IMG/VR virus record: IMGVR_UViG_3300009678_000063
Coordinates: 1 to 63,299 of that record
Reading direction: 5' to 3' (one strand)
Source of the DNA: a virus
Taxonomy: Duplodnaviria > Caudoviricetes
DNA length: 63,299 nucleotides
Part shown: positions 49,349-63,180 of the stretch, piece after piece
How positions within the stretch are numbered: the first letter of the stretch is position 1
Layout of the letters: the number at the start of each line of letters is the position of its first letter
Notes under the pieces: model-generated
The model's input: the letters and a program-made list of their open reading frames with translations, nothing else
Database searches by the model: none
Told to the model about the DNA's origin: nothing
Program-made: the position numbers and the translations under genes

Positions 49349-50230
49349 CTATAGGGTGAAGTTGTTCAGGTGAGCCGGACGACCCTCAAGCGAGAAGCCG
49401 AAGTAGCCCTTTATCATGAAGTCCACCGAGTCCTTGGTCTTGGCCAACTCCTCAAAGGTGAAGTCCTTGTGCACGAGCAACTTCGCGTCAGCGCGACGGA
49501 AGAAGAGGATGTCCGTACCGGTCTCCCAGTGGAGGTCCGTTACGATAGGAATGCCGTCGTACGAGAGCACGCGGAATCCTGCACCCACTTCAACGGTGTC
49601 GTTGAACTGCTGCGTCGCCTGCAAGAGCGAGTTGATCTTTCGACGGACCTGTCGGCTGGTGACCATGATGTCAGCCTCGCCGCGGGTCATGTCGATAGCC
49701 TCGTCGATCTTGGCTAGCGTCAGGGTGGTTGCGCCACCTGAGACCACGCCGGAACCGGTGCCACCCCAGTTGATTGCATCGTTGGTGTCGATCTGGTGAA
49801 GGATACCCTCGATGTCATTGGAGCCACCGGTTGCCACAGCGATGTCGGAGGACAACTGCTCGACTAGCGAGCGCTGGTGTGCCTCGACCTCAAGTGACAT
49901 GGCGTTGTACAGCGAGCCTGCCGCTGCCTGCATCGGTCCAGTGACCTCTCCACGGGTGTAGAGGTACTTGACCGCCTTGCTGACCTTCTCGAAGGTGGAC
50001 TGGGATGCTGCCGGAAGGGCCGCACCGTCAGTAGACCACGAGGAGGTCGGGAGCGCGGTTCGACGACGTACGAAGTACGTGTTCGTCGCCCACGGTACCC
50101 GAGCCACGATGTTGGCTAGAACAGGTTCCTTCGACGCGTAGTCGCGGATAGCCTCGTTCACCAACTCCGGGATCAGGTAAGAGCCGCTTGACGCTAGGTC
50201 AAGGGCCTTGCGGATGGTTGTCTGCTCCAT
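49349..50230 (-). CDS. Major capsid protein (HK97 fold)
   Basis: GSYLIPE, position after the protease, YDGIPIV. Confidence 0.88.
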   Translation of the reverse strand: MEQTTIRKALDLASSGSYLIPELVNEAIRDYASKEPVLANIVARVPWATNTYFVRRRTALPTSSWSTDGAALPAASQSTFEKVSKAVKYLYTRGEVTGPMQAAAGSLYNAMSLEVEAHQRSLVEQLSSDIAVATGGSNDIEGILHQIDTNDAINWGGTGSGVVSGGATTLTLAKIDEAIDMTRGEADIMVTSRQVRRKINSLLQATQQFNDTVEVGAGFRVLSYDGIPIVTDLHWETGTDILFFRRADAKLLVHKDFTFEELAKTKDSVDFMIKGYFGFSLEGRPAHLNNFTL

Positions 50231-50237
50231 CTTACCC

Positions 50238-51359
50238 TCAGTTTGCTACGCCCGTGCCGTGCATGCCGGCAAGGGCAATCCTCAACTTCTCGGACGGGCT
50301 GGCCTTGTCGAACTCAGCCCTGAACTCTTCCTCAGCGGACTTGGTAGCCGCGTCGGTGATTGCCCCCGGAAGTTGCGTACGGGGTGCGTTCTCTAGTGCC
50401 TCGATGCGCTCGGTTGCCTCGGCGACCAGCGTGATGAGTTCCTCGTTCTCGGCGACTTGCGCTGCAACGGCGGCCTTTACGGCCTCGTCTACCGCCTTCG
50501 CGAGGGTCTCTGCCTCATCGCTGTCCTGAGCCGACTTGTCGGGCTCAACCTCGACGGCGTCGCTCTCGATGACCCCAAGGGCCACTAGAGTCTCCGTCAT
50601 GTCGTGATATAGAGCGCCCAAGCGCTCACGGTTCGCTGCGCTGATTGACCGACCGGCCTTCTCAACGTCGTCATCGGCCGCCGCACCGGCGTCATCAGCC
50701 CCTTCGGACTGCGCCTCGGTGCCGTCACCCTCAACGGGCTCCGTCACTGCTACCGATTCCTCAACGGCGTCTTCGCCGCTGTGGAGTTCCTCATCATCCA
50801 TAGATGTGCTCTCTCCCATTGTTGCCGCGCCGTCATCAGCGTCGGATACGCTCTTCGCTAGCACGGTACCCAAGGACGGGTACCACGCCGGACGAGTGGT
50901 GTTGCTAATCTCATCAAGTACTACGTGCTTGAAGGTCCTGATTGATCGGCCAAGTTCGGCCACGAACTCGCTGGCCCAGTCCAGCACGGTCCCGGAGACT
51001 GACATTCCGAACTGCTTGCCCTTGCTGACCTGATTGAACAGGTACACCGAGGCAGGGTTGTCGGAATCTAGTCGAACCTCCACACCTAGGTGGAAGTGCT
51101 CGTTGATCCACGCCTTCGTCAAGACACCTAGGTCCCTTAGGACGCCGTCGGGCGCGTGTGCGTCCCGGTAGGGCAGCGGGTCACCCATCGCCTGACGCTC
51201 TTCGATCTGCTTGGCGAATCGCTCGATGGCCTCAGGCGCAATGCGCTCGTCGTCAGTATCGACCTCCGGTCCGGAGGCGAATCCTAGGATGTACAGGCCG
51301 TCCTCGCGACTCTCCGCCTTGAGAACGGGGAACGTGAACTTGAAGGAAGTGTTAGCCAT
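50238..51359 (-). CDS. Prohead protease with scaffold-like acidic C-terminus
   Basis: G.AS...D...E, H, MSVSG, EIS..RPA.P. Confidence 0.85.
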   Translation of the reverse strand: MANTSFKFTFPVLKAESREDGLYILGFASGPEVDTDDERIAPEAIERFAKQIEERQAMGDPLPYRDAHAPDGVLRDLGVLTKAWINEHFHLGVEVRLDSDNPASVYLFNQVSKGKQFGMSVSGTVLDWASEFVAELGRSIRTFKHVVLDEISNTTRPAWYPSLGTVLAKSVSDADDGAATMGESTSMDDEELHSGEDAVEESVAVTEPVEGDGTEAQSEGADDAGAAADDDVEKAGRSISAANRERLGALYHDMTETLVALGVIESDAVEVEPDKSAQDSDEAETLAKAVDEAVKAAVAAQVAENEELITLVAEATERIEALENAPRTQLPGAITDAATKSAEEEFRAEFDKASPSEKLRIALAGMHGTGVAN

Positions 51360-52695
51360 CTACTTGGTCCTCGCCGCCAGTCTCCTCGCTCGGAGGAACC
51401 TCTGGTACGCTACTGTCTGGTATTCGCGGAACTAGCCCGGCAACGGGCGGTATCAGCCGTGATGCGACATCGTCGAGCCACTCGACAGGGATAGCCCCCG
51501 CGGCCGTCTGGATGAAGTGAACGTCGCCGCCCTTGATGTGCGGCAGCCCAATCTCTGACCCGATCTGGTTGATTGAGAAGACACCCATCTTCTCACCCTC
51601 GGCGTAGAGTTTCATCATGTCGAGCATGTCTCGACGGGATGAGTCGTTCTGTCGGAACAGGACGTCGTCCCACCCAAACATCCGAAGGATCAGGTGGTTA
51701 TTGACCTCTTCCTCGACGACGAGTTGGAGCGGAGCGATGTTCTCCTGTCGGAAGGTGTTATCCGCTTCCTTACTGGTCGAACGGTTCGAGTCCTCGTTGA
51801 CACCGATCTTGGTCGGGTCAATGTCGAGCACCGATAGAATCTCTTGACGAGAGAACTCACGCAGTTCGATGAACTGCATCTCCTGACGGGTACTCACCGA
51901 ACGCTGGACGTCGATGTCACCCTCTAGGATGACCGGACGGTGGGCGTTGTCGGTACCGACGTAGTTCTGCTCCATCCACTCTCGGTTGCGCTGAACCTCC
52001 TCGGTACTCGCGTTCTTCATGTTGAAGATCGTACCGGTATGGGCGGCGTTCTCGAAGTACTTCTCGTTGAACTTCATGGAGAACAGATCGCCGGCAACGG
52101 ACAGTTCGAGGCTCGCCAGCAATGACAATCCGCGGATGTCGTTATCCGGATCGTCGAACTTGAACTGAACGACCTCATCGGCCGAGTACTTGATGACCTG
52201 ATCCTCGTTGTACACCGGACCGTAGTCCCAACCGCCGAGTAGGGCGCCGTTCATGCGCTCATTGATGTAGCGCGGGTGGAGTCGGACGGCCTTGTTGGGC
52301 ATATCATTGCCGGTGGTCACTATGAGCCAGAAGGACTCACCGAATATCAGAAGGTCCTTGTAGGTCAATCGAAGCAACTGACTACCGTTCGACGTGCGGA
52401 AGAACGTCCGCAACGACGACACTTTGGAATCCTCGACCTCATCGTCGGCAACCGACGGCACGAAGCGGTATCCGTTAGCGACGGCTACCTTAGCGATCTT
52501 CTCGATGCCCGCACGTAGCGTCGGGTGCTGTCGGTACATCGCGTAGTACACCGCGTACCGTTCCTTACGTGGCAGGTCGCGCACCGTAGTGGTGGCCTGA
52601 CCGGACGGGACCAGCGCGGAGATTCTGCCGACGACATCGCCCTTTGGCGTAACGGCGACCTGAGCCTTTGAGGTTCTAGTTCTTGTCGTTGCCAT
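51352..52695 (-). CDS. Portal protein
   Basis: DLLIFGES, GLS.L, YFENAA, MQF.E.R..R.EI. Confidence 0.9.
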   Translation of the reverse strand: MATTRTRTSKAQVAVTPKGDVVGRISALVPSGQATTTVRDLPRKERYAVYYAMYRQHPTLRAGIEKIAKVAVANGYRFVPSVADDEVEDSKVSSLRTFFRTSNGSQLLRLTYKDLLIFGESFWLIVTTGNDMPNKAVRLHPRYINERMNGALLGGWDYGPVYNEDQVIKYSADEVVQFKFDDPDNDIRGLSLLASLELSVAGDLFSMKFNEKYFENAAHTGTIFNMKNASTEEVQRNREWMEQNYVGTDNAHRPVILEGDIDVQRSVSTRQEMQFIELREFSRQEILSVLDIDPTKIGVNEDSNRSTSKEADNTFRQENIAPLQLVVEEEVNNHLILRMFGWDDVLFRQNDSSRRDMLDMMKLYAEGEKMGVFSINQIGSEIGLPHIKGGDVHFIQTAAGAIPVEWLDDVASRLIPPVAGLVPRIPDSSVPEVPPSEETGGEDQVDG

Positions 52696-52897: not shown

Positions 52898-53095
52898 TCA
52901 GGCCTTCTGGATGGTCTTGGGGTCATTGGGCCACTTGACGGTAGAGCCACACCTGCGGCACGGTCCCTCAACGGAGCCGACCACTAGACGGTACAGGTCA
53001 CGGTGCTTGATGGCTAGGCGCGCTGTACCGTCCGAGGAGACTTCCACGTAACCGAACAGGGACCCACACTGGCACCTAACTGGTTCCGGTTTCAT
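52898..53095 (-). CDS. Small zinc-ribbon protein
   Basis: RCQCG...CRRCG. Confidence 0.55.
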   Translation of the reverse strand: MKPEPVRCQCGSLFGYVEVSSDGTARLAIKHRDLYRLVVGSVEGPCRRCGSTVKWPNDPKTIQKA

Positions 53096-54566
53096 GGCTC
53101 CAAGGCCCTCCCAAGAATCCCATGCGCACCGGGCGCCGAGAGTCTCCGTACAGTGCTAGGACGAGACTCCAAAAGTAGTCGTCCTTGTTGCCCGCAAACT
53201 TGTAGAAGTTCGCTTCGGTCTTCGTCCGGCGTATGCCGTGAATCTGTCTCGTCAAGTCCTGATGGTTGGGCCACGTTACGAGGCCCATTTGCATGTCACC
53301 CTTGAGGGTGGTAGCCCATCGCTCCTTGCGCTGGTTAGTGAAGACAACGCCCTCGATGTTTCCGCTTATCTCGCGCTTGGCGTCCTCAACGAACTTCTGG
53401 CCGACGCCGGTCTGGTCGATGGTGACACGTGCTGGATTCGTAGCGGCGATCAAGCGACGAAGGTACTCGAACTGCTCGTTGTACGGGTCCTGCGTGGCCT
53501 TCGTGAAGAGGACACGACGAGTAGACGAATCGTCAGGACCGGGTAGGGTCTCGACCACCGTAAACACGGTCTGGTCTCGGTCACGGGCCAAGTCCACCCC
53601 GATAGACAGTGAGCCTTCGGAACGGAAGAGGCCATTCCAGTCTCGCCAAATCTTCTGGTCGTGGTCCGTGCAGGACTGGATCAGGTCCCACGTGTAGTAG
53701 GCCGACATCTCATCCTCGAACTCGCACTCGTACTCAGTGCGGAATCCGACGGTGTCGTTACCGAACTCCTCGAAGATCGAGATGAGTTTGTCCGTGCCGT
53801 ACTGGCGGACGCGTTCCTCGGTGGTGAGTCCAGAGGCAAGTGCTAGTGCGTCGGGAAGCGCACCTTCGCGGACCATCGCGGAACACTCCCACCACGGGAC
53901 AAGGTGCCGCGAGTAGTTCGCGTAGGTCTGCTCTCCGGACCAGATGTCGAAGAACATGCCGGACTGCGCTAGCGGAGTAGAGACGATAGTGATTCGTGCG
54001 CCGCCCCGGGTGATGGCGGGAAGTGCGGCCCGGTACAACTTCTTCGCATCGCGAACGTGCGCGAACTCATCGAAGTAGATGTCCTTGCGGCCACCGCGGA
54101 TGGCGGAGGAGGCCGGCTGAGAGATGATGGCGCTCGTGTCGGGGGGGCGGTGGAACGAAATCTCGTTGTCCGCGTCGGTCCAAAGGATCGGCTTGAGGAC
54201 TGGGTCGGTCTCACGGAACTCGTCGCCGATGCTGTGGTACAGCGCTCGGGCGATGTCAACCTTGTCGCCCGCCTCCTTCTGGTTGATGGAGACGATGTTA
54301 GCCCGGTAGTTCCTCTGCGTCGCCGCTCGGAAGGTCGCTTCCGCCGACAGGACCGTCGAGAACCCGATCTGCCTCGACTTGTCCACTATCCGGTACGCTG
54401 ACTTGTCGTTCAGGAACCGAATCTGGTAGGTCTCCAACTTGGTCGGCTCGCCCTCCAAGGAGGTCAGTGTCTCCAACCAGACTGCCGGGTTGGTCGCCAA
54501 CAAGTACAGCAAGTCGTCCTCGGAGGTCTCGACTTGCCCAAACTTTGAGAAGCGGTTCTGGACCAT
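53076..54566 (-). CDS. terL: Terminase large subunit
   Basis: KSRQIGFS Walker A, YFDEFAH Walker B, VSTP, IGVDLAR, DQTGVG, DDYFWS. Confidence 0.95.
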   Translation of the reverse strand: MVQNRFSKFGQVETSEDDLLYLLATNPAVWLETLTSLEGEPTKLETYQIRFLNDKSAYRIVDKSRQIGFSTVLSAEATFRAATQRNYRANIVSINQKEAGDKVDIARALYHSIGDEFRETDPVLKPILWTDADNEISFHRPPDTSAIISQPASSAIRGGRKDIYFDEFAHVRDAKKLYRAALPAITRGGARITIVSTPLAQSGMFFDIWSGEQTYANYSRHLVPWWECSAMVREGALPDALALASGLTTEERVRQYGTDKLISIFEEFGNDTVGFRTEYECEFEDEMSAYYTWDLIQSCTDHDQKIWRDWNGLFRSEGSLSIGVDLARDRDQTVFTVVETLPGPDDSSTRRVLFTKATQDPYNEQFEYLRRLIAATNPARVTIDQTGVGQKFVEDAKREISGNIEGVVFTNQRKERWATTLKGDMQMGLVTWPNHQDLTRQIHGIRRTKTEANFYKFAGNKDDYFWSLVLALYGDSRRPVRMGFLGGPWSHETGTS

Positions 54567-55029
54567 CTGCCTTATCTTCCTCCCGCTTCTCGACCTGATG
54601 TCGGAGCGCAAGTAGGGAGTTGAGGACCTTGATGCGGTCAGTTACGTCCCTGCGGAAGTAAGACTCAACGTTGATTTCGCCATCGTCGCCGACGGCCGAG
54701 GTCATCTCGCCGATCATTGCCGGCATGAGGTTGCGCGATAGAATGAGGATCAGGGCGTCCAACTCGCGCTTGGTCGAGATTGCCTTGCCGTCTCGAATGA
54801 CACCACGAAGGTACGTGAAGTGCTCCGGCGGAACGGTGCCCTCCATCTTGAGGAGCATGGCGTCGGCCAGTTCAGTGGGGACCAGCGACTTCGGCTTGTT
54901 CTTCGAGCCCGGTGGGCGACCGCCACGACGGGTGGTCAGCGACTTCTCCCCGGCCTGATGAGTAGTGCGTGAAGCGCTCTCCGACCGACCCTCGGTGTCT
55001 CTAACGGCGGCAGCGGCTCTTGGCATCAT
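54298..55029 (-). CDS. Terminase small subunit candidate
   Basis: GGRPPGSKNK motif, directly upstream of and overlapping terL. Confidence 0.55.
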   Translation of the reverse strand: MMPRAAAAVRDTEGRSESASRTTHQAGEKSLTTRRGGRPPGSKNKPKSLVPTELADAMLLKMEGTVPPEHFTYLRGVIRDGKAISTKRELDALILILSRNLMPAMIGEMTSAVGDDGEINVESYFRRDVTDRIKVLNSLLALRHQVEKREEDKADGPEPLLKVWASRDLRGRLAVLVGDQPGSLVGDTDLLGGRADQVGDLPDSVPERQVSVPDSGQVEADRVLDGPVGGSDLPSGDAEELPG

Positions 55030-55044
55030 TTCTCCGGACATAGT

Positions 55045-55436
55045 GGGACCCCCTGCACCCGCGAGGGGAGGGGGTCCGATGGAGCGGTTGATCCGCGCGC
55101 TCAGGCGGTGAACGGCTGGACTTTCGTGTACCAGCACTCGGCGTACGAAGTACGGTAACAGTCCTTGTCAGGACTCCGAGACCCACGGTTGGGTTCCACC
55201 CACAGGTTCAGGCTCGTTAGGCCCTCCGCCGCGGTCCGTACTGTCAGCCCGGTGCCGCGTCGTTTACTGCTGCCCACGGTGCGATCCCTCCCTTCGTGAG
55301 GAGGGGTTCCGCCACGCTCCACGTCCTTTCGAGGGGACGCTTATCAAATGCAGCGGGCCATTTACGGGCTACTCACCCGAAGTGAGTTCCGTGGGGTGAC
55401 CCGCCAGTCACCCGAATATATCGGACCTTTCGGCCC
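55045..55436 (-). ncRNA. Unassigned ~390-nt structured RNA
   Basis: Serial hairpins with GAAA and cUUCGg loops immediately 3' of the last tRNA. Confidence 0.55.
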
Positions 55437-55437
55437 A

Positions 55438-55513
55438 TGGCTGCGTCTCAAGGGATCGAACCTTGGAATCTGCTGGTTCAAGGCCAGCCGCCTTACCGCT
55501 TGGCTAAGACGCA
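55438..55513 (-). tRNA. tRNA-Gln(UUG), C33
   Basis: Cloverleaf, loop CC-TTG-AA, CCA. Confidence 0.85.
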
Positions 55514-55514
55514 T

Positions 55515-55589
55515 TGGCGAGTCATCTCAGGCTCGAACTGAGAACCGGAAGGGTAAGAACCTTCTGCACCACCGTTGTGCTAATGACCC
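55515..55589 (-). tRNA. tRNA-Lys(CUU)
   Basis: Cloverleaf, TT-CTT-AC, CCA. Confidence 0.85.
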
Positions 55590-55590
55590 A

Positions 55591-55665
55591 TGGCTGCGAT
55601 GGCAGGACTCGAACCTGCAACAAGACGGGTAACAACCGCCGGCTCTGCCGTTGAACTACACCGCA
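55591..55665 (-). tRNA. tRNA-Asn(GUU)
   Basis: Cloverleaf, CCA. Confidence 0.9.
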
Positions 55666-55666
55666 A

Positions 55667-55740
55667 TGGACAGCGTGACGAGACTCGAACTCGCATACGT
55701 GGGGGTAAAAGCCCCGTGGCAACCGTTTGCCCACACGCCG
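55667..55740 (-). tRNA. tRNA-Lys(UUU)
   Basis: CT-TTT-AC, CCA. Confidence 0.8.
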
Positions 55741-55741
55741 A

Positions 55742-55816
55742 TGGAAGCGGAGAAAGGAATCGAACCTTCGACTTGGCGCGTATGAAGCGCCTGTTCTGCC
55801 ACTGAACTACTCAGCC
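55742..55816 (-). tRNA. tRNA-Met(CAU), elongator (Ile2 not excluded)
   Basis: TT-CAT-AC, CCA. Confidence 0.8.
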
Positions 55817-55818
55817 AT

Positions 55819-55896
55819 TGGTAGACGTATTAGGAGTTGAACCTACTCTTGTTCGGGATATAAGCCCGACGGCCACTACCGGCGACCACTACGTCC
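55819..55896 (-). tRNA. tRNA-Ile(UAU)
   Basis: CT-TAT-AT, A73, CCA. Confidence 0.8.
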
Positions 55897-55897
55897 A

Positions 55898-55973
55898 TGG
55901 TGCTATCCAAGGGACTCGAACCCCCGACGCGCAGTGCTTCAAACTGCCGTTCTACCTACTGAACTAAGATAGC
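55898..55973 (-). tRNA. tRNA-Phe(GAA)
   Basis: Cloverleaf, CCA. Confidence 0.9.
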
Positions 55974-55974
55974 G

Positions 55975-56238
55975 TGTAAGGCGTGTAGGAGAGTTACGCC
56001 GTCGCTTCCGCTTTCCGGAACGACCCAACCTGCCGGACAGGTCCCCTCCACCATCGCTAGGGAGTCCGAGTTTCTACACCTAGCGTACAGGCTTGTAAGT
56101 ACGCGACTGCCCACACTTACCGCCACCAGCCCCGCGAAGGGCGGGTGGTCCCTCTTCCCCGCGGGACAAGCCCTCGGTTTACAGACGGTCCACCATCAAG
56201 GCCGAGCAATCTCAGCGCTGCTTGGCAGTCGCGAATCA
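55975..56238 (-). ncRNA. Unassigned structured RNA(s), two closed domains
   Basis: CGCGACTGCC/GGCAGTCGCG and GTGTAG/CTACAC closing stems between tRNAs. Confidence 0.55.
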
Positions 56239-56239
56239 T

Positions 56240-56313
56240 TGGAGCACCTGCTAGGAATCAAACCTAGACCTCCACCCTTACAAGGGGCGTGTCCTGTCTT
56301 AGACGACAGGTGC
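56240..56313 (-). tRNA. tRNA-Thr(UGU)
   Basis: Cloverleaf, CCA. Confidence 0.85.
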
Positions 56314-56314
56314 A

Positions 56315-56391
56315 TGGCGGGGACCACGAGACTCGAACTCGCTGCCTCCGGCTTGACAAGCCGGTATCAATACCACTTAGACCTCATCCCC
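56315..56391 (-). tRNA. tRNA-Asp(GUC)
   Basis: Cloverleaf, CCA. Confidence 0.88.
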
Positions 56392-56392
56392 G

Positions 56393-56471
56393 TGGTGAAT
56401 GTTGTTGGACTCGAACCAACGGCCTTCTCCTTATCAGAGAGATGCACGCATACCAACCGTGCTCAACATCC
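56393..56471 (-). tRNA. tRNA-Ile(GAU)
   Basis: Cloverleaf, CCA. Confidence 0.88.
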
Positions 56472-56472
56472 T

Positions 56473-56548
56473 TGGAGCAGTAAACGAGACTCGAACTCGC
56501 GACCTCCTCCTTGGCAAGGAGGAACACTTCCAACTGTGCTTCTACTGC
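56473..56548 (-). tRNA. tRNA-Gly(GCC)
   Basis: Cloverleaf, CCA. Confidence 0.9.
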
Positions 56549-56549
56549 G

Positions 56550-56636
56550 TGGTACTCATGGTGGGAGTCGAACCCACAATCCCGCTAGGGCGCTTGCTTC
56601 TAAGGCAAGTCCGTATACCAGTTCCGGCACACGAGC
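56550..56636 (-). tRNA. tRNA-Leu(UAG)
   Basis: Long variable arm, CCA. Confidence 0.9.
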
Positions 56637-56638
56637 AT

Positions 56639-56716
56639 TGGTGCAATCCCCCGGACTCGAACCGGGACATAACTAGGTTCTCGACCTAGTCCCTCTACCA
56701 TTTGGGGTAGGACAGC
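56639..56716 (-). tRNA. tRNA-Leu(GAG), short variable loop, C33
   Basis: TC-GAG-AA, A73, CCA. Confidence 0.8.
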
Positions 56717-56718
56717 GT

Positions 56719-56794
56719 TGGCAGCGACCGCGGGACTTGGACCCGCTAGGACCGCCTTGAAAGGACGGCCGCTCGACCCTTTGCATTGGTCGCC
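56719..56794 (-). tRNA. tRNA-Glu(UUC), divergent T-loop
   Basis: CT-TTC-AA, T-loop TCCAAGT, CCA. Confidence 0.75.
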
Positions 56795-56795
56795 T

Positions 56796-56871
56796 TGGCT
56801 GGAACGGTAGGGCTCGAACCTACGATTACCGGGTTCAGAGCCCGGAGCCTTGCCAACTTGGCCACATTCCA
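56796..56871 (-). tRNA. tRNA-Gln(CUG)
   Basis: Cloverleaf, CCA. Confidence 0.92.
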
Positions 56872-56879
56872 ATGTGTAA

Positions 56880-56980
56880 TGGCGGGCTCGGCAACCGCAC
56901 TATCCCGGGCCCTCGCGCTAGCAGCATCCCCGGTTTCATGAGGCCGGTTTCCCCGTCGAGAAACATAGACCTCCGCTTCA
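56880..56980 (-). ncRNA. Unassigned CCA-ended structured RNA
   Basis: GCGG/CCGC terminal pairing + CCA, internal hairpins, no T-loop. Confidence 0.45.
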
Positions 56981-56984
56981 TTGA

Positions 56985-57317
56985 GCAGATAGGCTATAAG
57001 CCCCGTCCTGTGGACCTTGGTTCAAGCGCCTTGCGGCTCCCAACTGAACGACTGCCATCCACCTTGCTGTTCGATTGCTCGAACAATCCTTGCGTGCTTC
57101 TCCACCCCACCGAGCCTCGTCATAGGGCACTCGCACTTGCAACGCCTAGAGTTTACCCGTTTCACCCGAGCACTACCTCGGTTCGTCACTGTTGCACTAG
57201 TCCTACCCTCGCGGGCGCCGGCCGTTAGCCGGTAGGCTGGCTCTGGTTGCGGGGACTTTCCTCACTCACCGCGGGACAAGTCACCGAACGGATATGCGCG
57301 ACAGTCCACCTATCTAC
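56985..57317 (-). ncRNA. rnpB: RNase P RNA (reduced bacterial type A-like)
   Basis: GAGGAAAGTCCCC, AGTGCAACAG, GGGTGAAACGGGTAAAC, GGATGGCAGTC, ACAGGACGGGGCTTA; P1, P4, P5, P6 and P18 pair. Confidence 0.93.
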
Positions 57318-57323
57318 TGCTAC

Positions 57324-57343
57324 AGTATAGCACACCCTGTCAA
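57324..57343 (-). promoter_or_regulatory. Short-spacer promoter of rnpB
   Basis: TTGACA-gggtgtgc-TATACT ending 6 nt before P1. Confidence 0.7.
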
Positions 57344-57357
57344 GGACTGCAAACTGG

Positions 57358-57435
57358 TGGTCAACCTCGCGAGACTCGAACTCGCACGTGCTCCGGGTTT
57401 GAGCCGGAGGCCTCTGCCATTTGGGCTACAGGTTG
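57358..57435 (-). tRNA. tRNA-Leu(CAA), short variable loop
   Basis: CT-CAA-AC, A73, CCA. Confidence 0.82.
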
Positions 57436-57436
57436 G

Positions 57437-57512
57437 TGGTACCCGATGACGGACTCGAACCGCCGACACCTAGTATGTAACACTAGTGTTCTGGCCGCTG
57501 AACTAAACGGGC
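57437..57512 (-). tRNA. tRNA-Val(UAC)
   Basis: GT-TAC-AT, CCA. Confidence 0.88.
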
Positions 57513-57513
57513 T

Positions 57514-57589
57514 TGGTGCATCCTGCTGGACTCGAACCAGCGACCCCCACCATGTCAAGGTGGTGCGCTAACCGCTGCGCTAAGGAAGC
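57514..57589 (-). tRNA. tRNA-Val(GAC)
   Basis: Cloverleaf, CCA. Confidence 0.92.
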
Positions 57590-57590
57590 G

Positions 57591-57665
57591 TGGGGTGGAA
57601 CCAGAGAGTCGAACTCTGCTATCCGGGCTCACAACCCGGTGCCTCGCCACAAGGCTTGTAACACC
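57591..57665 (-). tRNA. tRNA-His(GUG)
   Basis: G-1/C73, CCA. Confidence 0.85.
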
Positions 57666-57667
57666 AT

Positions 57668-57743
57668 TGGCCCCAACGGTCAGACTCGAACTGACGGCCT
57701 AGTGTTTAGGAAACACTCGCGCTGTCCACTGCGCTACATCGGG
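57668..57743 (-). tRNA. tRNA-Arg(CCU)
   Basis: Cloverleaf, CCA. Confidence 0.9.
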
Positions 57744-57744
57744 A

Positions 57745-57819
57745 TGGCACCCTCGACTGGACTCGAACCAGTATCGTGCGGCTTAGAAGACCGTTGTTCA
57801 TCCGTTGAACTACGAAGGT
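57745..57819 (-). tRNA. tRNA-Arg(UCU)
   Basis: Cloverleaf, CCA. Confidence 0.9.
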
Positions 57820-57820
57820 A

Positions 57821-57877
57821 TGAATCGGCAGACGGAGTCGAACCGTCCGTGTCGCGAACACTCCCCAGTAACCGACC
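57821..57877 (-). ncRNA. 57-nt mini tRNA-like RNA
   Basis: Acceptor-like stem + perfect T-arm GACGG-TTCGACT-CCGTC, no D-stem, stunted anticodon arm. Confidence 0.6.
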
Positions 57878-57878
57878 A

Positions 57879-57952
57879 TGGAGACCACTACCGGACTCGA
57901 ACCGGTGTCCGCGGGTTTGCAAGCCGCTCCCTTGCCTCTCGGGCAAATGGTC
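57879..57952 (-). tRNA. tRNA-Cys(GCA)
   Basis: U73, CCA. Confidence 0.88.
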
Positions 57953-57953
57953 A

Positions 57954-58037
57954 TGTTGCAAGTGTGGTGGACCGCGGGTTCCACCCCCGGCCGCTCAGCG
58001 CGTGGAAAACGCAGACGGTAATGCCCACACACTCGCA
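57954..58037 (-). ncRNA. 84-nt three-way-junction RNA with complementary loops
   Basis: TGCGAGTGTG/CACACTTGCA stem; loops TTCCAC and GTGGAA. Confidence 0.55.
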
Positions 58038-58113
58038 TGGAGCGTCATACAGGATTTGAACCCGCGCGTTCTGCTTGGAAGGCAGACATGCTACCATTGA
58101 ACATCAATGACGC
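58038..58113 (-). tRNA. tRNA-Gly(UCC)
   Basis: Cloverleaf, CCA. Confidence 0.9.
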
Positions 58114-58114
58114 T

Positions 58115-58190
58115 TGGCACCGATGACAGGACTCGAACCCGCATGCTCCCTGCTTCGAAGGCAGGAGTTCATCCATTGAACTACATCGGT
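58115..58190 (-). tRNA. tRNA-Arg(UCG)
   Basis: Cloverleaf, CCA. Confidence 0.88.
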
Positions 58191-58191
58191 A

Positions 58192-58268
58192 TGGCTCGCC
58201 TCGTGAGACTCGAACTCACGGCCTCAGCCTTCGCAGGGCTGCGCTCTATCCACTGATGCTAGAGGCGA
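58192..58268 (-). tRNA. tRNA-Arg(GCG)
   Basis: CT-GCG-AA; D-stem TAGC-a-TCAG; CCA. Confidence 0.88.
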
Positions 58269-58269
58269 A

Positions 58270-58346
58270 TGGTGACGCCTACGGGGCTCGAACCCGTAAT
58301 CTCCTGACTGAGAATCAGGGGCCTTGACCGATTTGGCTAAGGCGCC
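58270..58346 (-). tRNA. tRNA-Glu(CUC)
   Basis: Cloverleaf, CCA. Confidence 0.9.
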
Positions 58347-58347
58347 A

Positions 58348-58423
58348 TGGAGCCGAAGGAGGGACTCGAACCCTCGACCTCATCCTTACCAAGGATGTGC
58401 ACTGCCGACTGTGCTACTTAGGC
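58348..58423 (-). tRNA. tRNA-Thr(GGU)
   Basis: Cloverleaf, CCA. Confidence 0.92.
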
Positions 58424-58424
58424 G

Positions 58425-58499
58425 TGGAGCCAACCCTCGGACTCGAACCGAGAACCTACTGCTTACGAAGCAGTTGCGCTGCCATTGCGCTAGGAAGGC
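58425..58499 (-). tRNA. tRNA-Thr(CGU)
   Basis: Cloverleaf, CCA. Confidence 0.9.
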
Positions 58500-58501
58500 G
58501 T

Positions 58502-58587
58502 TGGTGTTGCCAGTGAGAGTCGAACTCACTCACCCCGTAGGGGCCAGTTTTACAGACTGGCTTGGGAACCGTCCCGCTGTCGTCAAC
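58502..58587 (-). tRNA. tRNA-Tyr(GUA)
   Basis: Long variable arm, CCA. Confidence 0.85.
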
Positions 58588-58588
58588 A

Positions 58589-58664
58589 TGGTGGAGATAC
58601 AGGGAATCGAACCCTGACTTTCTGCTTGCAAGGCAGTTGTGCAGCCCACTATCACTACACCCCC
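58589..58664 (-). tRNA. tRNA-Ala(UGC)
   Basis: G3:U70, CCA. Confidence 0.9.
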
Positions 58665-58665
58665 A

Positions 58666-58741
58666 TGGTCAGACTGGAAGGACTCGAACCTTCGACTTCC
58701 CACTCCCGAAGCGGGCACGCTACCTACTGCGCTACAATCTG
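58666..58741 (-). tRNA. tRNA-Pro(CGG)
   Basis: Cloverleaf, CCA. Confidence 0.92.
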
Positions 58742-58742
58742 A

Positions 58743-58818
58743 TGGTCAGAAAGACAGGCCTCGAACCTGCGACCTCCGCACCCCCAGTGCGGGACTCTAC
58801 CAACTGAGTTACTTTCTG
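58743..58818 (-). tRNA. tRNA-Pro(GGG)
   Basis: Cloverleaf, CCA. Confidence 0.92.
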
Positions 58819-58819
58819 A

Positions 58820-58895
58820 TGGTCAGAGCAGTGAGACTCGAACTCACGACCTCCCGATCCCAAATCGGGTGGACTACCTACTGTCCTACACTCTG
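58820..58895 (-). tRNA. tRNA-Pro(UGG)
   Basis: Cloverleaf, CCA. Confidence 0.92.
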
Positions 58896-58896
58896 A

Positions 58897-58981
58897 TGGC
58901 GGATGCTAGAGGACTCGAACCCCTACGGGTGTAACCCCATCACGGCTTTCAAGGCCGATAAGTGCTCCTATACGAGCATCC
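58897..58981 (-). tRNA. tRNA-Ser(UGA)
   Basis: Long variable arm, reduced D-arm, G73, CCA. Confidence 0.82.
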
Positions 58982-58982
58982 A

Positions 58983-59067
58983 TGGCGGATAGTAAGGGAC
59001 TCGAACCCCTACACCTGTAACGGCCTCACCGCTTTCGAGGCGGAGTAGCACACCAATGCGACTATCC
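58983..59067 (-). tRNA. tRNA-Ser(CGA)
   Basis: Long variable arm, reduced D-arm, CCA. Confidence 0.82.
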
Positions 59068-59068
59068 A

Positions 59069-59153
59069 TGGCGGAAGGTACAGGACTCGAACCTGTACGA
59101 CTTTGAGGTCATCACCGCTTTCCAAGCGACTTAGTACGCCAATACGACCTTCC
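59069..59153 (-). tRNA. tRNA-Ser(GGA)
   Basis: Long variable arm, reduced D-arm, CCA. Confidence 0.82.
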
Positions 59154-59154
59154 G

Positions 59155-59239
59155 TGGCGGAAGCGACAGGACTCGAACCTGTACGGGTGTTACCCCATCA
59201 CCCCTTAGCAGGGGGCTTACTGCGCCAGTAGGCGCTTCC
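59155..59239 (-). tRNA. tRNA-Ser(GCU)
   Basis: Long variable arm, reduced D-arm, CCA. Confidence 0.82.
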
Positions 59240-59240
59240 G

Positions 59241-59418
59241 TGGAGCGGTAGGCCGTCTCTGACCACGCCTATCCGCCTAGTCCCCCGCGCGCTATAGTCA
59301 GAATCGACCGGGGACACTCCGCCACCCGAAGACGGCGGAGGGGCAGGGACTCGGCCTGAGGCACACCCCGGGCACAACGCCCTGCGCGCGTACTCGGGAA
59401 ACCAAAGGCCAATCATTA
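59241..59418 (-). ncRNA. Unassigned ~178-nt CCA-ended structured RNA
   Basis: CGCGCGC/GCGCGCG and CCGGGG/CCCCGG stems, cUUCGg hairpin, terminal hairpin + TCCA. Confidence 0.5.
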
Positions 59419-59419
59419 T

Positions 59420-59496
59420 TGGGTGCGCCAGCGGGACTCGAACCACGCTTCTCCGGGTTATGAGCCCAGTGAGGAAACCTTTCCTCCCATAGCACA
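59420..59496 (-). tRNA. Initiator-type tRNA-fMet(CAU)
   Basis: GGG-CT-CAT-AA-CCC anticodon arm, CCA. Confidence 0.82.
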
Positions 59497-59569
59497 TGGC
59501 AGGCCCGGCGAGACTCGAACTCGCGGCTAAGCGTTTTGGAGACGCCCGCAGCACCGTTGCCTCGAACCT
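59497..59569 (-). tRNA. tRNA-Trp(CCA)
   Basis: CT-CCA-AA, G73, CCA. Confidence 0.85.
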
Positions 59570-59574
59570 GTAGT

Positions 59575-59672
59575 TAGCACCGGCCCACACATCCATCCGG
59601 ACCGAGGAGCGACCCCAATCGTGATGGAAACCTACCGCCGTTCGGGTTGCGAACCCACCCTGACCGGTGCTG
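59575..59672 (-). ncRNA. Unassigned structured RNA at the head of the array
   Basis: AGCACCGG/CCGGTGCT closing stem with internal hairpins. Confidence 0.45.
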
Positions 59673-59763
59673 TAATACCGCTTACCGAATGCGGTGCTCT
59701 TCGACGGGATACATTTCATAGGCCCCAGTTGGCCAACCGGTTATCTCTCAGAGCGGAGCCGCT

Positions 59764-59783
59764 AGTGTACCACACGATGTCAA
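59764..59783 (-). promoter_or_regulatory. Short-spacer promoter of the tRNA array
   Basis: TTGACA-tcgtgtgg-TACACT. Confidence 0.65.
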
Positions 59784-59859
59784 ATCCTGCAACATCGAAA
59801 GGCAGAAAACGTAAAGTGCCCCTACTTACTAGCCAACTTGGGGACCAAATCCTCCCGTT

Positions 59860-60513
59860 TTACCTCGAACTTCGCTGATTGGCGTCAACTTGAGCACGAA
59901 CATCCGCGAAGATCGTCGGGAACCGAGACTCTAGGGTTTCGAGGACTTCCATCATGATCGAGCGCATTTCGGGCTGCGCCGACGTGTGACAGCGGAGTCT
60001 GAGGACGTGCCGCCACTCACGGAGGTTCATCTTCGCGATAATGCGGGTACGGGTGGCGTTAGGCAAGACATATCGAGCGATCTGCGACTTGACCCCTAGA
60101 CGCTTCAACTCTAGGTAGGCCGCGTGAGCCCCAACCATCGCGGATCGGTAGGCGACCAGCGCGTCCTCTCCGGCCGCGGAGACTTCCGGTGGCAGGTACG
60201 TCAGGTCGATGGGGTCCTCGTCGTCGTACTTGACGTACCGCTGGCTCTCCTGCTGGTAGGATGCAATCCGGTGTCGAACGAGTTCGTGACTCACGACCCG
60301 GCTACACTCGATCAGGAAGACGACATCCACCATCTCAAGCATAGACTCTTCGCCGGCCGCGATCCAGCGACCGATAATGGCCGAGTCACCCATCTTGGCT
60401 ATGGACTTTGGACCGTAATCCCAACGGCCCGAGTACTCGATGATGTCCTCCGGTGAGGTCAAGTCGGGCAATAGCGGGGTCGTCAGCGCTATCAGGGTAA
60501 CGCGAGGCTGCAC
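59860..60513 (-). CDS. thyX: Flavin-dependent thymidylate synthase
   Basis: SR..SHELVRHRIASYQQESQRY, ARYVLPNA, NLREW.H...LR, AQPEMR. Confidence 0.93.
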   Translation of the reverse strand: MQPRVTLIALTTPLLPDLTSPEDIIEYSGRWDYGPKSIAKMGDSAIIGRWIAAGEESMLEMVDVVFLIECSRVVSHELVRHRIASYQQESQRYVKYDDEDPIDLTYLPPEVSAAGEDALVAYRSAMVGAHAAYLELKRLGVKSQIARYVLPNATRTRIIAKMNLREWRHVLRLRCHTSAQPEMRSIMMEVLETLESRFPTIFADVRAQVDANQRSSR

Positions 60514-60660
60514 TACAGTAGCAGGAACGCGAAGACCAGAACAAACCACGCTATCGCCAGCAGGGCGACCATGGTCATCACTAGTGCCACGATAAGGAAC
60601 CACGCCGCGCGGGCGAGGAACAGCAGCGTGTTCTCTATGGCCAACCATAGGCCTGATTGA

Positions 60661-60864
60661 CTAGACAACATCACGAACTACCTCGTACATGTAGGCCATC
60701 TCGCTCTCACAGTTCTCGCACAGCGGCTTACGCAACCACTCCCGCTCGGAGTAGGCCTTCGCGAAGTAGCGGGACATCCTGTCACCGGGAGAGCGAACGG
60801 TGCAGGACGGGCACTTCGCGAAGATGACCGGGTCACTGGGCAGAAGTCGGACGGGGTTACCCAC
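60661..60864 (-). CDS. Small zinc-finger protein
   Basis: CPSC...CENC. Confidence 0.5.
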   Translation of the reverse strand: MGNPVRLLPSDPVIFAKCPSCTVRSPGDRMSRYFAKAYSEREWLRKPLCENCESEMAYMYEVVRDVV

Positions 60865-63180
60865 CTAGCACCGACTGTAGTCGCACGACACGCACTTCTC
60901 ACACCCCTCTTCGTACTTTAGCGATGCCTGATGGCAAGACGGACAGATGTCGTAGGTCGCGCGATTGACCGGCGACGAGCCCTCGATGACCGGCGACGTA
61001 CCGGCGTTGAGGGCCGTGAGGGCGACACCTATGGCATGGGGTACGGCGCGGTTGAGGTTGCCGTTACCGCCGACACCCTCCAACTGATTAGCCACACCGC
61101 CAACTGTCGCACCGTGACGGAGTGCCAATGAGGCCAGACGACCGAGGGCCTCGGTCATGGATGAGAGGTCGGAGCCCGACCTGCCGACATTGACGAACAG
61201 TTCAACTGGGCGACCCGAGGCGTCATGGTTCAGGGTGATAAAGGCGGAACCAGCGCGTGTTGCGGCCTCGACCGTCACGCCGGCCAATGACGCTGGACGA
61301 AGGAAGTTGTACTCATCCGGTTCGGGGGCGGGCTCTGGCTCACGCGAGAGCACCTGAGCGCGGCCGCTCCCGTCCCGGAAGTACGCCACACCCTTGAGGC
61401 CTGAGTCGTAGGCCAGCCTGTAGGCCTTGTCCACGTCCTCGACAGTATGCGAGTTCGGACCATTGATGGTCTTCGATACGGATGAGTCGATGTTGCGCTG
61501 CACGGCAGCCTGCATCTTGATGTGCTGCTCGACGGTGACCTCATTAGCGGTAACCGCGTAGGCGCTCCCGTACTTCGAGACGGCCGGCGAGAACACCTTA
61601 TGGGTGCCCGTACGGTCCGTCCTAATGTACTCGGTATCGAACAGCGGTTCAATGCCGGAGTTCACGCCGGCTAGGAGGCTCGTCGTGCCGGTGGGCGCCT
61701 GCGTGAGCAGGAAGATGTTCCGAAGACCATTCTTGCGAATCTGGTCATCGAGGAACGGGTCATCGAGGCCGCTGAGGAATGGTCGTCCCGCCATGTCCTC
61801 CGACCAGTCCGGAGCCGGTCCGTACCGCCTAGCGAGGTCAATGGAGGACTCCACGGCCGCGGTGCGCATGTCGGAGAACACGGTATCCACGAAGTTCACC
61901 GCCTCATCGGACCCATACTTGATACCGAGCCCCATCAGGGCATCGGCTAGGCCCATGACGCCGAGACCGACACGGCGCAGGCGCTTCTGAATCCGTTCGT
62001 TCTCAGGGATGAAGTAGTGATTCTCGTCAACGACGCGGTCAAGGAATCGAATAGCGGACCCGACATCTTCCTTGAATCGCTGCCAGTCGAACCACGGGGG
62101 CTCGTAGTCCTCAGCCGTAACGTAGGCGTCGAGGTTCATCGCCCCAAGATTGCAGACAGAGTAGGCCCCAAGGCCCTGCTCACCGCATGGGTTGACCGAG
62201 ATAATCCGCTCTACGCCTCGACCAGTTGATTGAGCATTGTAGCGGCCGAGGAATACAACTCCGGGCTCTCCACTAGCCCACGCAGCCTCGACGATTGCTC
62301 GCCATACTTCTCGTGCGGGACGGGAACCGTGAGAGACAACGAGACCTCCACCCGCCTTCCATCCTGCAAGGTCACCGTCCCACCGACTGTTGTACTGAGG
62401 GTCACTTGTTTCGGGGAACTCGAAAACCCAGTTGCCGCCCTCTCGGACAGCATCCATGAACTCATCTGAAATCGCGATAGAGACGTTGGCATTCGTGATG
62501 GCCTCGTAGTTGCGCTTGGCATCAATGAACTCTAGCAGGTCCGGGTGCCAATCGTCCAGCATGAACATGGCCGCCCCGCGGCGTGAACCCCCCTGCTCGA
62601 CCACGCCGACTGCGCGGGAAGCGACGTCCATCCACGATACCGGTCCGGAGGTCGTCCCGTTCACGCGCTTGAGGTAGGTTCCCTTCGGACGCAGCACGGA
62701 CCAGTTGATTCCCACTCCGCCGCCACGGGACATGATGTCCACCATCAGGCCGATGGTGTCAAAGATGGCCTCACGCGAGTCGGAGCCACTGTCATCGCCG
62801 GTGAGGTCGCGCACATCGGCGCGCATGGACTCAACCTCGTCGGGGGTGGCGTCATCGGGGAACGTGAGAAGCACCACGTCATTTCGCATGCCACGCTTAG
62901 AGCGACGAAGTCGCGTCTCCACCGGTATGACGTAGCAGTTGTAGTAGGTGACCTCGGCGTCCACGCCGGCGCCGGACAGGATACGTCCGCCGGGAACGAA
63001 CTTGAATCGGTCAAGGAGGTCACGGAACTCTGCCCGTTCAGCGGAACCGCGGCCGATTGCCGCGGATACGCGATCCCACATCTCTTCAACAGTGGATTCG
63101 ACGGGCTGGCCGTCGGCGCCCTTACGGGCGTAGCGGTCAAGGAACACCGTCCTCTGATGGTCAGTTAGCGGAGTCGTCAA
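60865..63180 (-). CDS. nrdJ: Class II (B12-dependent) ribonucleotide reductase
   Basis: PGGRIL, NCYV, GGGVG, GGSRRGA, NPCGEQ, CNLG, APTGT, SVSKTIN, YFRDG, TSCPD-like domain + Zn ribbon; no nrdB seen. Confidence 0.92.
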   Translation of the reverse strand: MTTPLTDHQRTVFLDRYARKGADGQPVESTVEEMWDRVSAAIGRGSAERAEFRDLLDRFKFVPGGRILSGAGVDAEVTYYNCYVIPVETRLRRSKRGMRNDVVLLTFPDDATPDEVESMRADVRDLTGDDSGSDSREAIFDTIGLMVDIMSRGGGVGINWSVLRPKGTYLKRVNGTTSGPVSWMDVASRAVGVVEQGGSRRGAAMFMLDDWHPDLLEFIDAKRNYEAITNANVSIAISDEFMDAVREGGNWVFEFPETSDPQYNSRWDGDLAGWKAGGGLVVSHGSRPAREVWRAIVEAAWASGEPGVVFLGRYNAQSTGRGVERIISVNPCGEQGLGAYSVCNLGAMNLDAYVTAEDYEPPWFDWQRFKEDVGSAIRFLDRVVDENHYFIPENERIQKRLRRVGLGVMGLADALMGLGIKYGSDEAVNFVDTVFSDMRTAAVESSIDLARRYGPAPDWSEDMAGRPFLSGLDDPFLDDQIRKNGLRNIFLLTQAPTGTTSLLAGVNSGIEPLFDTEYIRTDRTGTHKVFSPAVSKYGSAYAVTANEVTVEQHIKMQAAVQRNIDSSVSKTINGPNSHTVEDVDKAYRLAYDSGLKGVAYFRDGSGRAQVLSREPEPAPEPDEYNFLRPASLAGVTVEAATRAGSAFITLNHDASGRPVELFVNVGRSGSDLSSMTEALGRLASLALRHGATVGGVANQLEGVGGNGNLNRAVPHAIGVALTALNAGTSPVIEGSSPVNRATYDICPSCHQASLKYEEGCEKCVSCDYSRC

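Follow-up and report, generated by a model that had tools for sequence, protein, structure and literature searches.

A class A RNase P RNA gene within the tRNA array of an uncultured tailed phage and its relatives

Introduction

Why would a phage carry an RNase P RNA gene in the midst of its own tRNA genes? The question is raised by IMG/VR virus record IMGVR_UViG_3300009678_000063, a linear stretch of 63,299 bp (hereafter the window) from an uncultured tailed phage of freshwater/groundwater, which CheckV estimates to be 57% complete. A preliminary description made from the sequence alone had read the minus strand within a tRNA array of the window as an RNase P RNA gene (rnpB). RNase P is commonly counted among the hallmarks of cellular life, and the tRNAs of phages, with T4 as the classic example, are believed to need the enzyme of the host. 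Here we ask whether the locus is what it appears to be, whether related phages keep it, and what it may do. We find a class A RNase P RNA gene that ten related phage contigs hold at one place under structural selection, and we consider it probable, judging from sequence comparison, that the gene supplies a functional catalytic subunit that would use host RnpA to mature the tightly packed tRNAs of the phage.

Results

The locus is a class A RNase P RNA gene without P13 and P14

An Rfam covariance-model scan of the whole window, the check that the preliminary description had proposed, matched minus strand 56981-57317 to RF00010 (RNaseP_bact_a) with 140.5 bits (E 4.2e-43; gathering score 100 bits). 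The match spans model positions 1-367 without truncation and is the only non-tRNA match of that scan. Conserved regions CR-I to CR-V are all present in the 337-nt gene, as are the helices that had been named before (P1, P4, P5, P6 and a GNRA-capped P18), so the initial identification of an RNase P RNA with five conserved regions on the minus strand holds; helices P7-P10 can be added to it.

In the window sequence, P1 pairs GUAGAUAGGU (57317-57308) with GCCUAUCUGC (56994-56985), P2 is GACUGUC/GGCAGUC and P5 is CAAC/GUUG. The RF00010 alignment places the 5' strand of P4, AAG-U-CCCCG with its bulged U, in CR-I (57250-57258) and the 3' strand, CGGGGCUU, in CR-V (56998-57005). The P6 pseudoknot joins GAGCC (57239-57243) to GGCUC in the loop of P17 (57112-57116), and a P6 between J5/7 and the P17 loop is a feature of class A, not class B. 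P18 (57066-57088) carries a GCAA tetraloop. Before CR-V lies a P19-like hairpin, GUUCA...GCC-GCAA-GGC...UGAAC, which is a 22-nt insertion relative to the Rfam model and whose coordinates (57021-57049) we read from the sequence.

The core of the S-domain (57153-57195) consists of CR-II CAACAGUGACGA, a P12 hairpin and CR-III GUGAAACGGG. The lone hairpin between the two conserved regions, 5 bp of CCGAG/CUCGG at 57181-57166, aligns as a short P12, and the P13/P14 block of RF00010 (43 model positions) is wholly deleted; the hairpin had previously been placed at P13/14, an assignment that we correct here. Leaving aside L15 (see Discussion), the sequence and structure tests that we ran all place the window gene in the class A family as a genuine member.

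Related phages hold the gene at one syntenic place

When IMG/VR was searched with the terminase, 26 related contigs were found at 45-67% identity. RF00010 matches eight of them, six at 128-137 bits (maximum 137.4) and two below the cut-off at 90.5 and 93.9 bits; one of the latter two is a genome of 111,050 bp that has direct terminal repeats and a completeness rating of 100%. We also tried a 15-mer from the CR-I of the window, GAGGAAAGTCCCCGC, as a probe for the clade and rejected it: among 26 further records it gave 25 chance matches and one new member. The carriers are nine relatives, seven of them above the RF00010 cut-off, and the window itself.

In all members the gene lies downstream of a tRNA-Leu(CAA) gene and upstream of a tRNA-Gln(CUG) gene, so the survey of related contigs suggested in the preliminary description finds rnpB in ten contigs at one syntenic place. 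In the window these neighbours, both ARAGORN calls on the minus strand, are at 57358-57435 and 56796-56871, respectively; the tRNA-Leu(CAA) is also called in L028, L029, L030, L031, L034, L035 and L066, and the tRNA-Gln(CUG) is syntenic in relatives.

Presence of the gene follows the size of the array. Where 28 or more tRNAs lie upstream of the terminase gene, rnpB is present (all eight loci); none of the remaining 18 has it. Ten of these 18 are without any tRNA, two of them despite a terminase identity of 65% and over 5 kb of sequence upstream, and three end at a contig edge before the expected place. Because of this division (8/8 against 0/18), we link the gene to the array: it comes and goes with a large array, though a large array is possible without it.

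The absence of an RnpA-like open reading frame (ORF), remarked on at the outset, is borne out by a search with PF00825 (RnpA) of the window and four relatives, among them the complete 111-kb genome (G019), in which nothing reached E<=1; the same search found a match in 10 of 14 known genomes used as a control.

Base pairing is maintained by compensatory change

We aligned eight phage copies with MAFFT and scored their pairs against a class A structure in which P4 and P6 were entered as pseudoknots. Except among three nearly identical copies, identity is 63-87%. Standard pairs fill 96.1% of cells, compared to 79.9% with shuffled partners, and none of 500 shuffles reached the observed value; when partners were slid by 1-3 columns, 33-39% of cells were paired. 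Both sides have changed at 45 of the 81 pairs.

The catalytic helix follows the same trend. All eight pairs of P4 are formed in 8/8 copies, three of the eight are compensatory, and the bulged U column is kept throughout; most copies read AAG-U-CCCCG/CGGGGCUU, and L034 and L035 read AGG-U-CGGCG/CGCCGCCU. P6 occurs in four compensated versions with 100% of cells paired and three of its five pairs changed on both sides, and in P18 all seven counted pairs have changed on both sides. RNAalifold independently recovers P1, P4, P5, P7-P9, P12 and P18; of the 89 pairs that it predicts, 42 are compensated. CR-II (CAACAG-GACGA) and CR-III GUGAAACGGG are invariant across the eight copies.

The RNAs of the clade are compact (311-338 nt). 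In 73 bacterial rnpB genes, a sample biased towards Burkholderiales, 96 columns are conserved to at least 97%. The window gene retains 82 of them, and its 14 departures include two P4 pairs flipped from G-C to C-G and one compensated P5 pair.

The gene has its own promoter-like site, and a tRNA follows closely in most relatives

A consensus scan of the window finds a promoter-like site at 57324-57353 (minus strand) with a -35 element TTTGCA, an 18-nt spacer and an extended -10 element TG-n-TATACT that ends 6 nt ahead of the first base of the RNA. It is the sole such site in 1 kb, where 0.2 would be expected. All nine relatives shown have a sigma-70-type promoter whose -10 element ends 5-8 nt ahead of the first base, with TTGACA-17 nt-TA(C/T/G)(A/C)(C/A)T in eight and TTGCAA-17 nt-TAGACT in the ninth (L035). 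With a promoter-like site at the 5' end of all ten copies shown, the earlier suggestion that the gene has its own promoter is upheld.

The window also contains a TTGACA (57330-57343 region, minus strand), just 8 nt from the TG-n-TATACT element. This odd spacing looks like the result of a deletion of about 9 nt, with the alternative -35 element TTTGCA taking over. A new class of promoter at rnpB seems unlikely, as the nine relatives have a 17-nt spacer at the same place.

At the other end of the gene, the tRNA-Gln starts about 1-9 nt past the end of the RNase P RNA match in eight of nine relatives, the exception being L034 with about 700 nt between them. The window has a spacer of 109 nt (56872-56980, minus strand) that is absent from most relatives. 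The preliminary description had seen a structured unit at 56880-56980, which we rejected: the fold of 56872-56984 has a z-score of 0.21 against shuffles.

The locus is represented in a public RNA library. A metatranscriptome of a third study includes a 283-nt contig identical to 57000-57282, inside the gene, and three further non-coding stretches of the island are likewise matched by exact contigs. The RNA run has no contigs on the coding flanks 53000-54987 and 59816-61500, to which we give no weight, since a lack of cover is no evidence.

The gene is inherited with the phage genome

Downstream of the array are genes for the large terminase (TerL, 53076-54611), portal (51352-52695) and an SU10-type capsid protein (49349-50230), along with a glycosyltransferase, minor tail proteins and a tape-measure protein; upstream are ThyX (59860-60648) and ribonucleotide reductase (RNR, 60865-63180). 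The GC fraction is even, 0.58-0.60 in the island and about 0.60 alongside.

Public runs cover the same arrangement. In one DNA run, possibly the source run, exact contigs tile 53000-61500. A DNA run of a second study has a 31.5-kb contig over 53000-56471 with 44 differences and an 8-kb contig over 56493-58903 (6 differences) and 58979-61500 (10 differences). These contigs are from an independent near-strain, about 1% divergent, in which the arrangement is the same and rnpB is linked to the RNR side. A DNA run of a fourth study has an exact match of 164 nt (57176-57339). The rnpB gene is thus a phage gene, inherited with the phage genome.

The array is unusual in its packing

The array that holds the gene (55438-59569, minus strand) contains 36 tRNAs called by ARAGORN, all on one strand and all ending in an encoded CCA. 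Neighbours are separated by 1 nt in 25 of 35 gaps, by 2 nt in two and by 3 nt in one. Where the gap is 1 nt, the base that precedes the cut is U in 15 cases, C in six and A in four, and never G. Given 1-nt gaps and encoded CCA, one cut per junction would leave the 3' end a single nucleotide over.

The fast Rfam scan gives 28 tRNA matches above the cut-off, and most of the others pass in the sensitive scan. The tRNAs had first been described as often non-canonical; with 36 ARAGORN calls and these 28 matches they are mostly canonical, and the unusual aspect of the array is how the tRNAs are packed, not their type. Two stretches left uncalled by ARAGORN resemble tRNAs in Rfam, one at 59423-59496 (minus strand, 37.6 bits) and one at 58506-58587 (minus strand), a long-arm match to the tRNA-Sec model at 30 bits, below the cut-off. 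Because of these two matches, the array probably comprises 37-38 tRNAs.

Two further stretches of the island are worth recording. The non-coding stretch 55045-55436, between the last tRNA and the terminase genes, contains at 55105-55339 (minus strand) a full-length sub-threshold match to manA RNA (RF01745; 29.6 bits, E 7.5e-5; cut-off 55.2 bits), and an exact 303-nt metatranscriptome contig covers 55121-55423. manA RNAs are known from phages, near tRNAs. The second stretch is a gap of about 265-290 nt free of tRNAs that recurs in the arrays of the window and several relatives (L002 4411-4674, L003 2968-3249, L009 2424-2709, L012 3351-3641 and L007 475-760). The window copy, at 55974-56239 (minus strand) between tRNA-Thr(UGU) and tRNA-Phe(GAA), has no Rfam match at E<=1, and an exact contig from an RNA run covers 56046-56343. 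This recurring gap is a candidate for a further conserved non-coding RNA in the island.

The slim S-domain is of a bacterial type, and the capture is old

We scanned bacterial genomes for the clade-invariant CR-II and CR-III with 10-24 nt between them. At least 120 loci matched, and among the matches listed, which do not sample the taxa evenly, 84 are from Burkholderiales (46 from Comamonadaceae) and 13 are alphaproteobacterial. Of the loci, 80 were examined with nhmmer, and all 80 have rnpB at the matched position. Four Comamonadaceae rnpB genes (192-210 bits in Rfam) have the short P12, the 43-position deletion and the insertion before CR-V. Because these chromosomal genes share the layout, the S-domain is not a phage invention; it is inherited from a bacterial type rather than being an adaptation of the phage.

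In a quick maximum-likelihood (ML) tree of 91 rows, the nine phage copies included form one clade (SH-aLRT 95) with a stem of 0.61, outside the Burkholderiales cluster. We rejected this tree as a guide to the host: the clade has no supported bacterial sister, and it clusters only weakly with alphaproteobacterial and other viral rows, where long branches meet, as the program warns. In a blastn search of the window gene against 401 Pseudomonadota genomes, we found only seven short matches, at most 79% identical over at most 86 nt. The capture of rnpB is old. A Burkholderiales host would fit the S-domain layout, the GC content of 60% and the run labels (groundwater/sediment), but they do not show it.

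Two rows of the rnpB comparison sit apart from their labels: that of a 'Muribaculaceae' metagenome-assembled genome (L203) groups with Alphaproteobacteria, and that of a 'Pantoea' isolate (L228) lies inside the Comamonadaceae cluster. Contaminant contigs are the likely cause of both mismatches.

RNase P RNA genes occur in other viral tRNA arrays

The canonical CR-I 15-mer is found in 76 IMG/VR stretches. We searched 75 such records, and RF00010 matches 58 of them, 51 above the cut-off. Many RNase P matches in IMG/VR are host copies at provirus edges, with about 270-335 bits near contig ends. However, 13 of 77 RF00010 matches, on contigs of other lineages, lie inside tRNA arrays, which we define as at least four tRNAs within 1.5 kb with tRNAs on both sides (L077, L081, L088, L090, L097, L103, L105, L115, L123, L129, L134, L139 and L142). 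Several of these contigs are 100-497 kb long, and the set includes some of 162-463 kb with completeness ratings of 97-100% and one of 168,570 bp that has terminal repeats; the phage nature of these other large rnpB contigs rests on the IMG/VR end class and CheckV figures. In four loci (L164, L165, L166 and L168), rnpB lies between tRNA-Cys(GCA) and tRNA-Gly(UCC), which suggests at least one more syntenic viral lineage of rnpB.

When we compared four viral rnpB genes with GenBank phages by blastn, no annotated phage rnpB was found; the matches were unannotated metagenomic 'Bacteriophage sp.' and misfiled bacterial records only. Cultured relatives are distant, with a best TerL match among GenBank phages that is just 29% identical.

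Discussion

How the phage RNA would work

The reading that we favour, and hold to be probable, is that the gene encodes a functional catalytic RNase P subunit that matures the tRNAs of the phage with the help of host RnpA. The RNA would be transcribed from its own sigma-70-type promoter in mid-array. In most relatives, RNase P cleavage at the 5' end of tRNA-Gln would also make the 3' end of the ribozyme. The phage RNA would then assemble with host RnpA, which would be needed because the phage has no rnpA. The cell would gain capacity to cut the long pre-tRNA transcript of the phage, and one RNase P cut per junction would yield a mature 5' end together with a 3' end one nucleotide too long. The catalysis, the use of host RnpA and the benefit to the phage are all predicted here from the sequence and its conservation.

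Several observations weigh against this reading. Two P4 pairs that are otherwise near-invariant G-C are flipped to C-G, changes that are compensated but lie in the catalytic helix; one flip is common to all nine phage copies, and neither occurs in nine other viral rnpB genes compared. In E. coli, the GGU of L15 pairs with the 3' CCA of the tRNA. The window L15 is GAGAA, in which the GGU-like triplet appears to be lost: at two L15 columns where bacteria have near-invariant G and U the window has A, and of the nine clade copies five have the G and eight the U. A GG dinucleotide would, in our reading of the sequence, be usable only if the last P16 pair opens. This change is odd for the enzyme because all of its substrates carry CCA, and it is the main point against a fully canonical mechanism. 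In the ML tree, no terminal branch in the clade is longer than that of the window copy (0.79). Two relatives have visible arrays of 19 and 26 tRNAs and no rnpB in the assembled part. The RNA-library contigs show presence, not strand, ends or level, and could be due to DNA carry-over. Finally, phage T4 relies on host RNase P, as covered in a recent review (PMC11143913).

Alternative explanations

The changes in P4 and L15 raise the possibility of a virus-specific RNase P that in vivo either needs no RnpA or relies on a phage protein not recognised as such, and that has become specialised for junctions of CCA plus a one-nucleotide leader. We regard this as unlikely. The unusual 1-nt spacing and the P4 flips and L15 changes peculiar to the clade would fit it, as would the failure of PF00825 to find an RnpA homologue in the window or the complete 111-kb relative and the many phage ORFs without a family match. 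Nevertheless, the conserved regions are the ordinary bacterial ones and no candidate cofactor was identified; moreover, bacterial P RNAs need their protein in vivo, and the subunits of different bacteria are interchangeable. If spelled out in full, with its own promoter, a 3' end self-trimmed at the following tRNA, no RnpA or an unrecognised phage protein, and P4 and L15 tuned to CCA-plus-one-nucleotide junctions, such an enzyme has, in our estimate, a small chance of being what the phage encodes. If it were, RNase P RNA would, taken with the other IMG/VR arrays, count as a gene that recurs in viruses and as the first known case of a virus-encoded trans-acting ribozyme.

A second alternative is that added capacity is not the point and that the RNA is a takeover or decoy molecule, which competes for limiting host RnpA, so that the processing of host pre-tRNAs is starved or the holoenzyme is turned to other targets. 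Since the phage lacks rnpA, any holoenzyme takes host protein, and the CCA-binding triplet of L15 is degenerate in the window and in four of nine copies. However, a pure decoy needs neither P4 with its bulged U, P6 and CR-I, CR-IV and CR-V, nor the CR-II and CR-III that read the T-loop, all of which are compensated or invariant, and the presence of the gene tracks the large tRNA arrays of the phage itself. We therefore find a decoy role unlikely as well, and return to a catalytic subunit that acts with host RnpA as the better account.

It is considerably harder to see the gene as a non-functional passenger, a fragment of host rnpB captured with tRNA genes and now decaying. The 140 bits of the window gene are lower than those of chromosomal genes (192-335 bits), and its branch is long. 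Yet ten contigs keep the gene at one syntenic place with a promoter, no close bacterial match was found among the 401 Pseudomonadota genomes, and 45 of 81 pairs are compensatory with 96% of cells paired at 63-87% identity. Because the pairs are compensated and CR-II and CR-III are invariant across copies, decay seems very unlikely.

An assembly chimera or host contamination, which the preliminary description had named as what would overturn its reading and which the many host copies at provirus edges in IMG/VR might bring to mind, is contradicted by the phage genes on both sides, the contigs of two DNA studies (one of them the near-strain) that cover the joins, the synteny of ten related contigs and the gene in the terminal-repeat-complete relative, and can be set aside as extremely improbable.

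Significance and comparison with known systems

A clade of phages of about 110 kb keeps its own catalytic RNA under clear structural selection, travelling with the largest tRNA arrays. Together with the at least 13 other array-embedded contigs, this clade suggests that 5' maturation can limit the supply of phage tRNAs and that some of the machinery for processing tRNAs can belong to phages. Compact P RNAs that are orphaned from their protein and carry compensated P4 changes are also material that can be tested directly in standard RNase P assays.

The closest known system is bacterial class A rnpB (E. coli M1 RNA; RF00010), with which the window gene shares P1-P12, P15-P18, CR-I to CR-V, the P4 with bulged U and P6. 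Unlike it, the window gene is phage-encoded, embedded in an array, accompanied by no rnpA in its genome and devoid of P13/P14; two of its P4 pairs are flipped, its L15 is GAGAA rather than GGU, and it scores 140 bits versus 192-335 for the chromosomal copies seen. Within bacteria, it shares its S-domain layout with the P13/P14-less rnpB of Burkholderiales (Comamonadaceae such as Variovorax, Polaromonas, Diaphorobacter and Limnohabitans) and some Alphaproteobacteria, in which CR-II is followed by a short P12 and then CR-III, and Comamonadaceae rnpB shares with it the extra hairpin before CR-V. The two differ in CR-I, GAGGAAAGUCCCCGC in the phage and GAGGAACGUCCGGAC in the P13/P14-less bacteria, and in L15, where the bacterial P13/P14-less (Comamonadaceae) copies keep CGGGUA and the phage window has GAGAA.

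Phage ribozymes beside phage tRNA genes have a precedent in the theta (HDV-like) ribozymes, which adjoin tRNA genes of gut phages and were proposed to free the phage from host tRNA-processing RNases (PMC10879173). These are small, self-cleaving RNAs that act in cis and trim 3' trailers, whereas RNase P RNA is a trans-acting, multiple-turnover 5' endonuclease; in its passages on RNase P, that paper assigns 5' maturation to this enzyme and mentions no phage copy. Likewise, the passages of the 2024 RNase P review on phage tRNA precursors have these cut by the host enzyme only (PMC11143913), and in the megaphages of Lui et al. 2021 a full Rfam scan is reported to give only tRNAs and a tmRNA (PMC8172020). 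The phage rnpB resembles other translation parts of phages (tRNA arrays, tmRNA, ribosomal proteins) in being a host-like component carried with many tRNAs. To our knowledge, RNase P RNA is not among the parts listed in papers on phage translation genes. We found no paper describing a phage-encoded RNase P RNA in the full-text literature, where a mention in a supplementary table or a subscription paper is possible.

An rnpB gene separated from its protein is itself familiar, as plastid, cyanelle and some mitochondrial genomes keep rnpB while the protein comes from another genome. Organellar rnpB descends from the endosymbiont's own gene, whereas the phage copy is viral and its structure is far better conserved than that of most organellar versions. 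What is new is the setting: a virus-encoded, array-embedded RNase P RNA without its protein partner.

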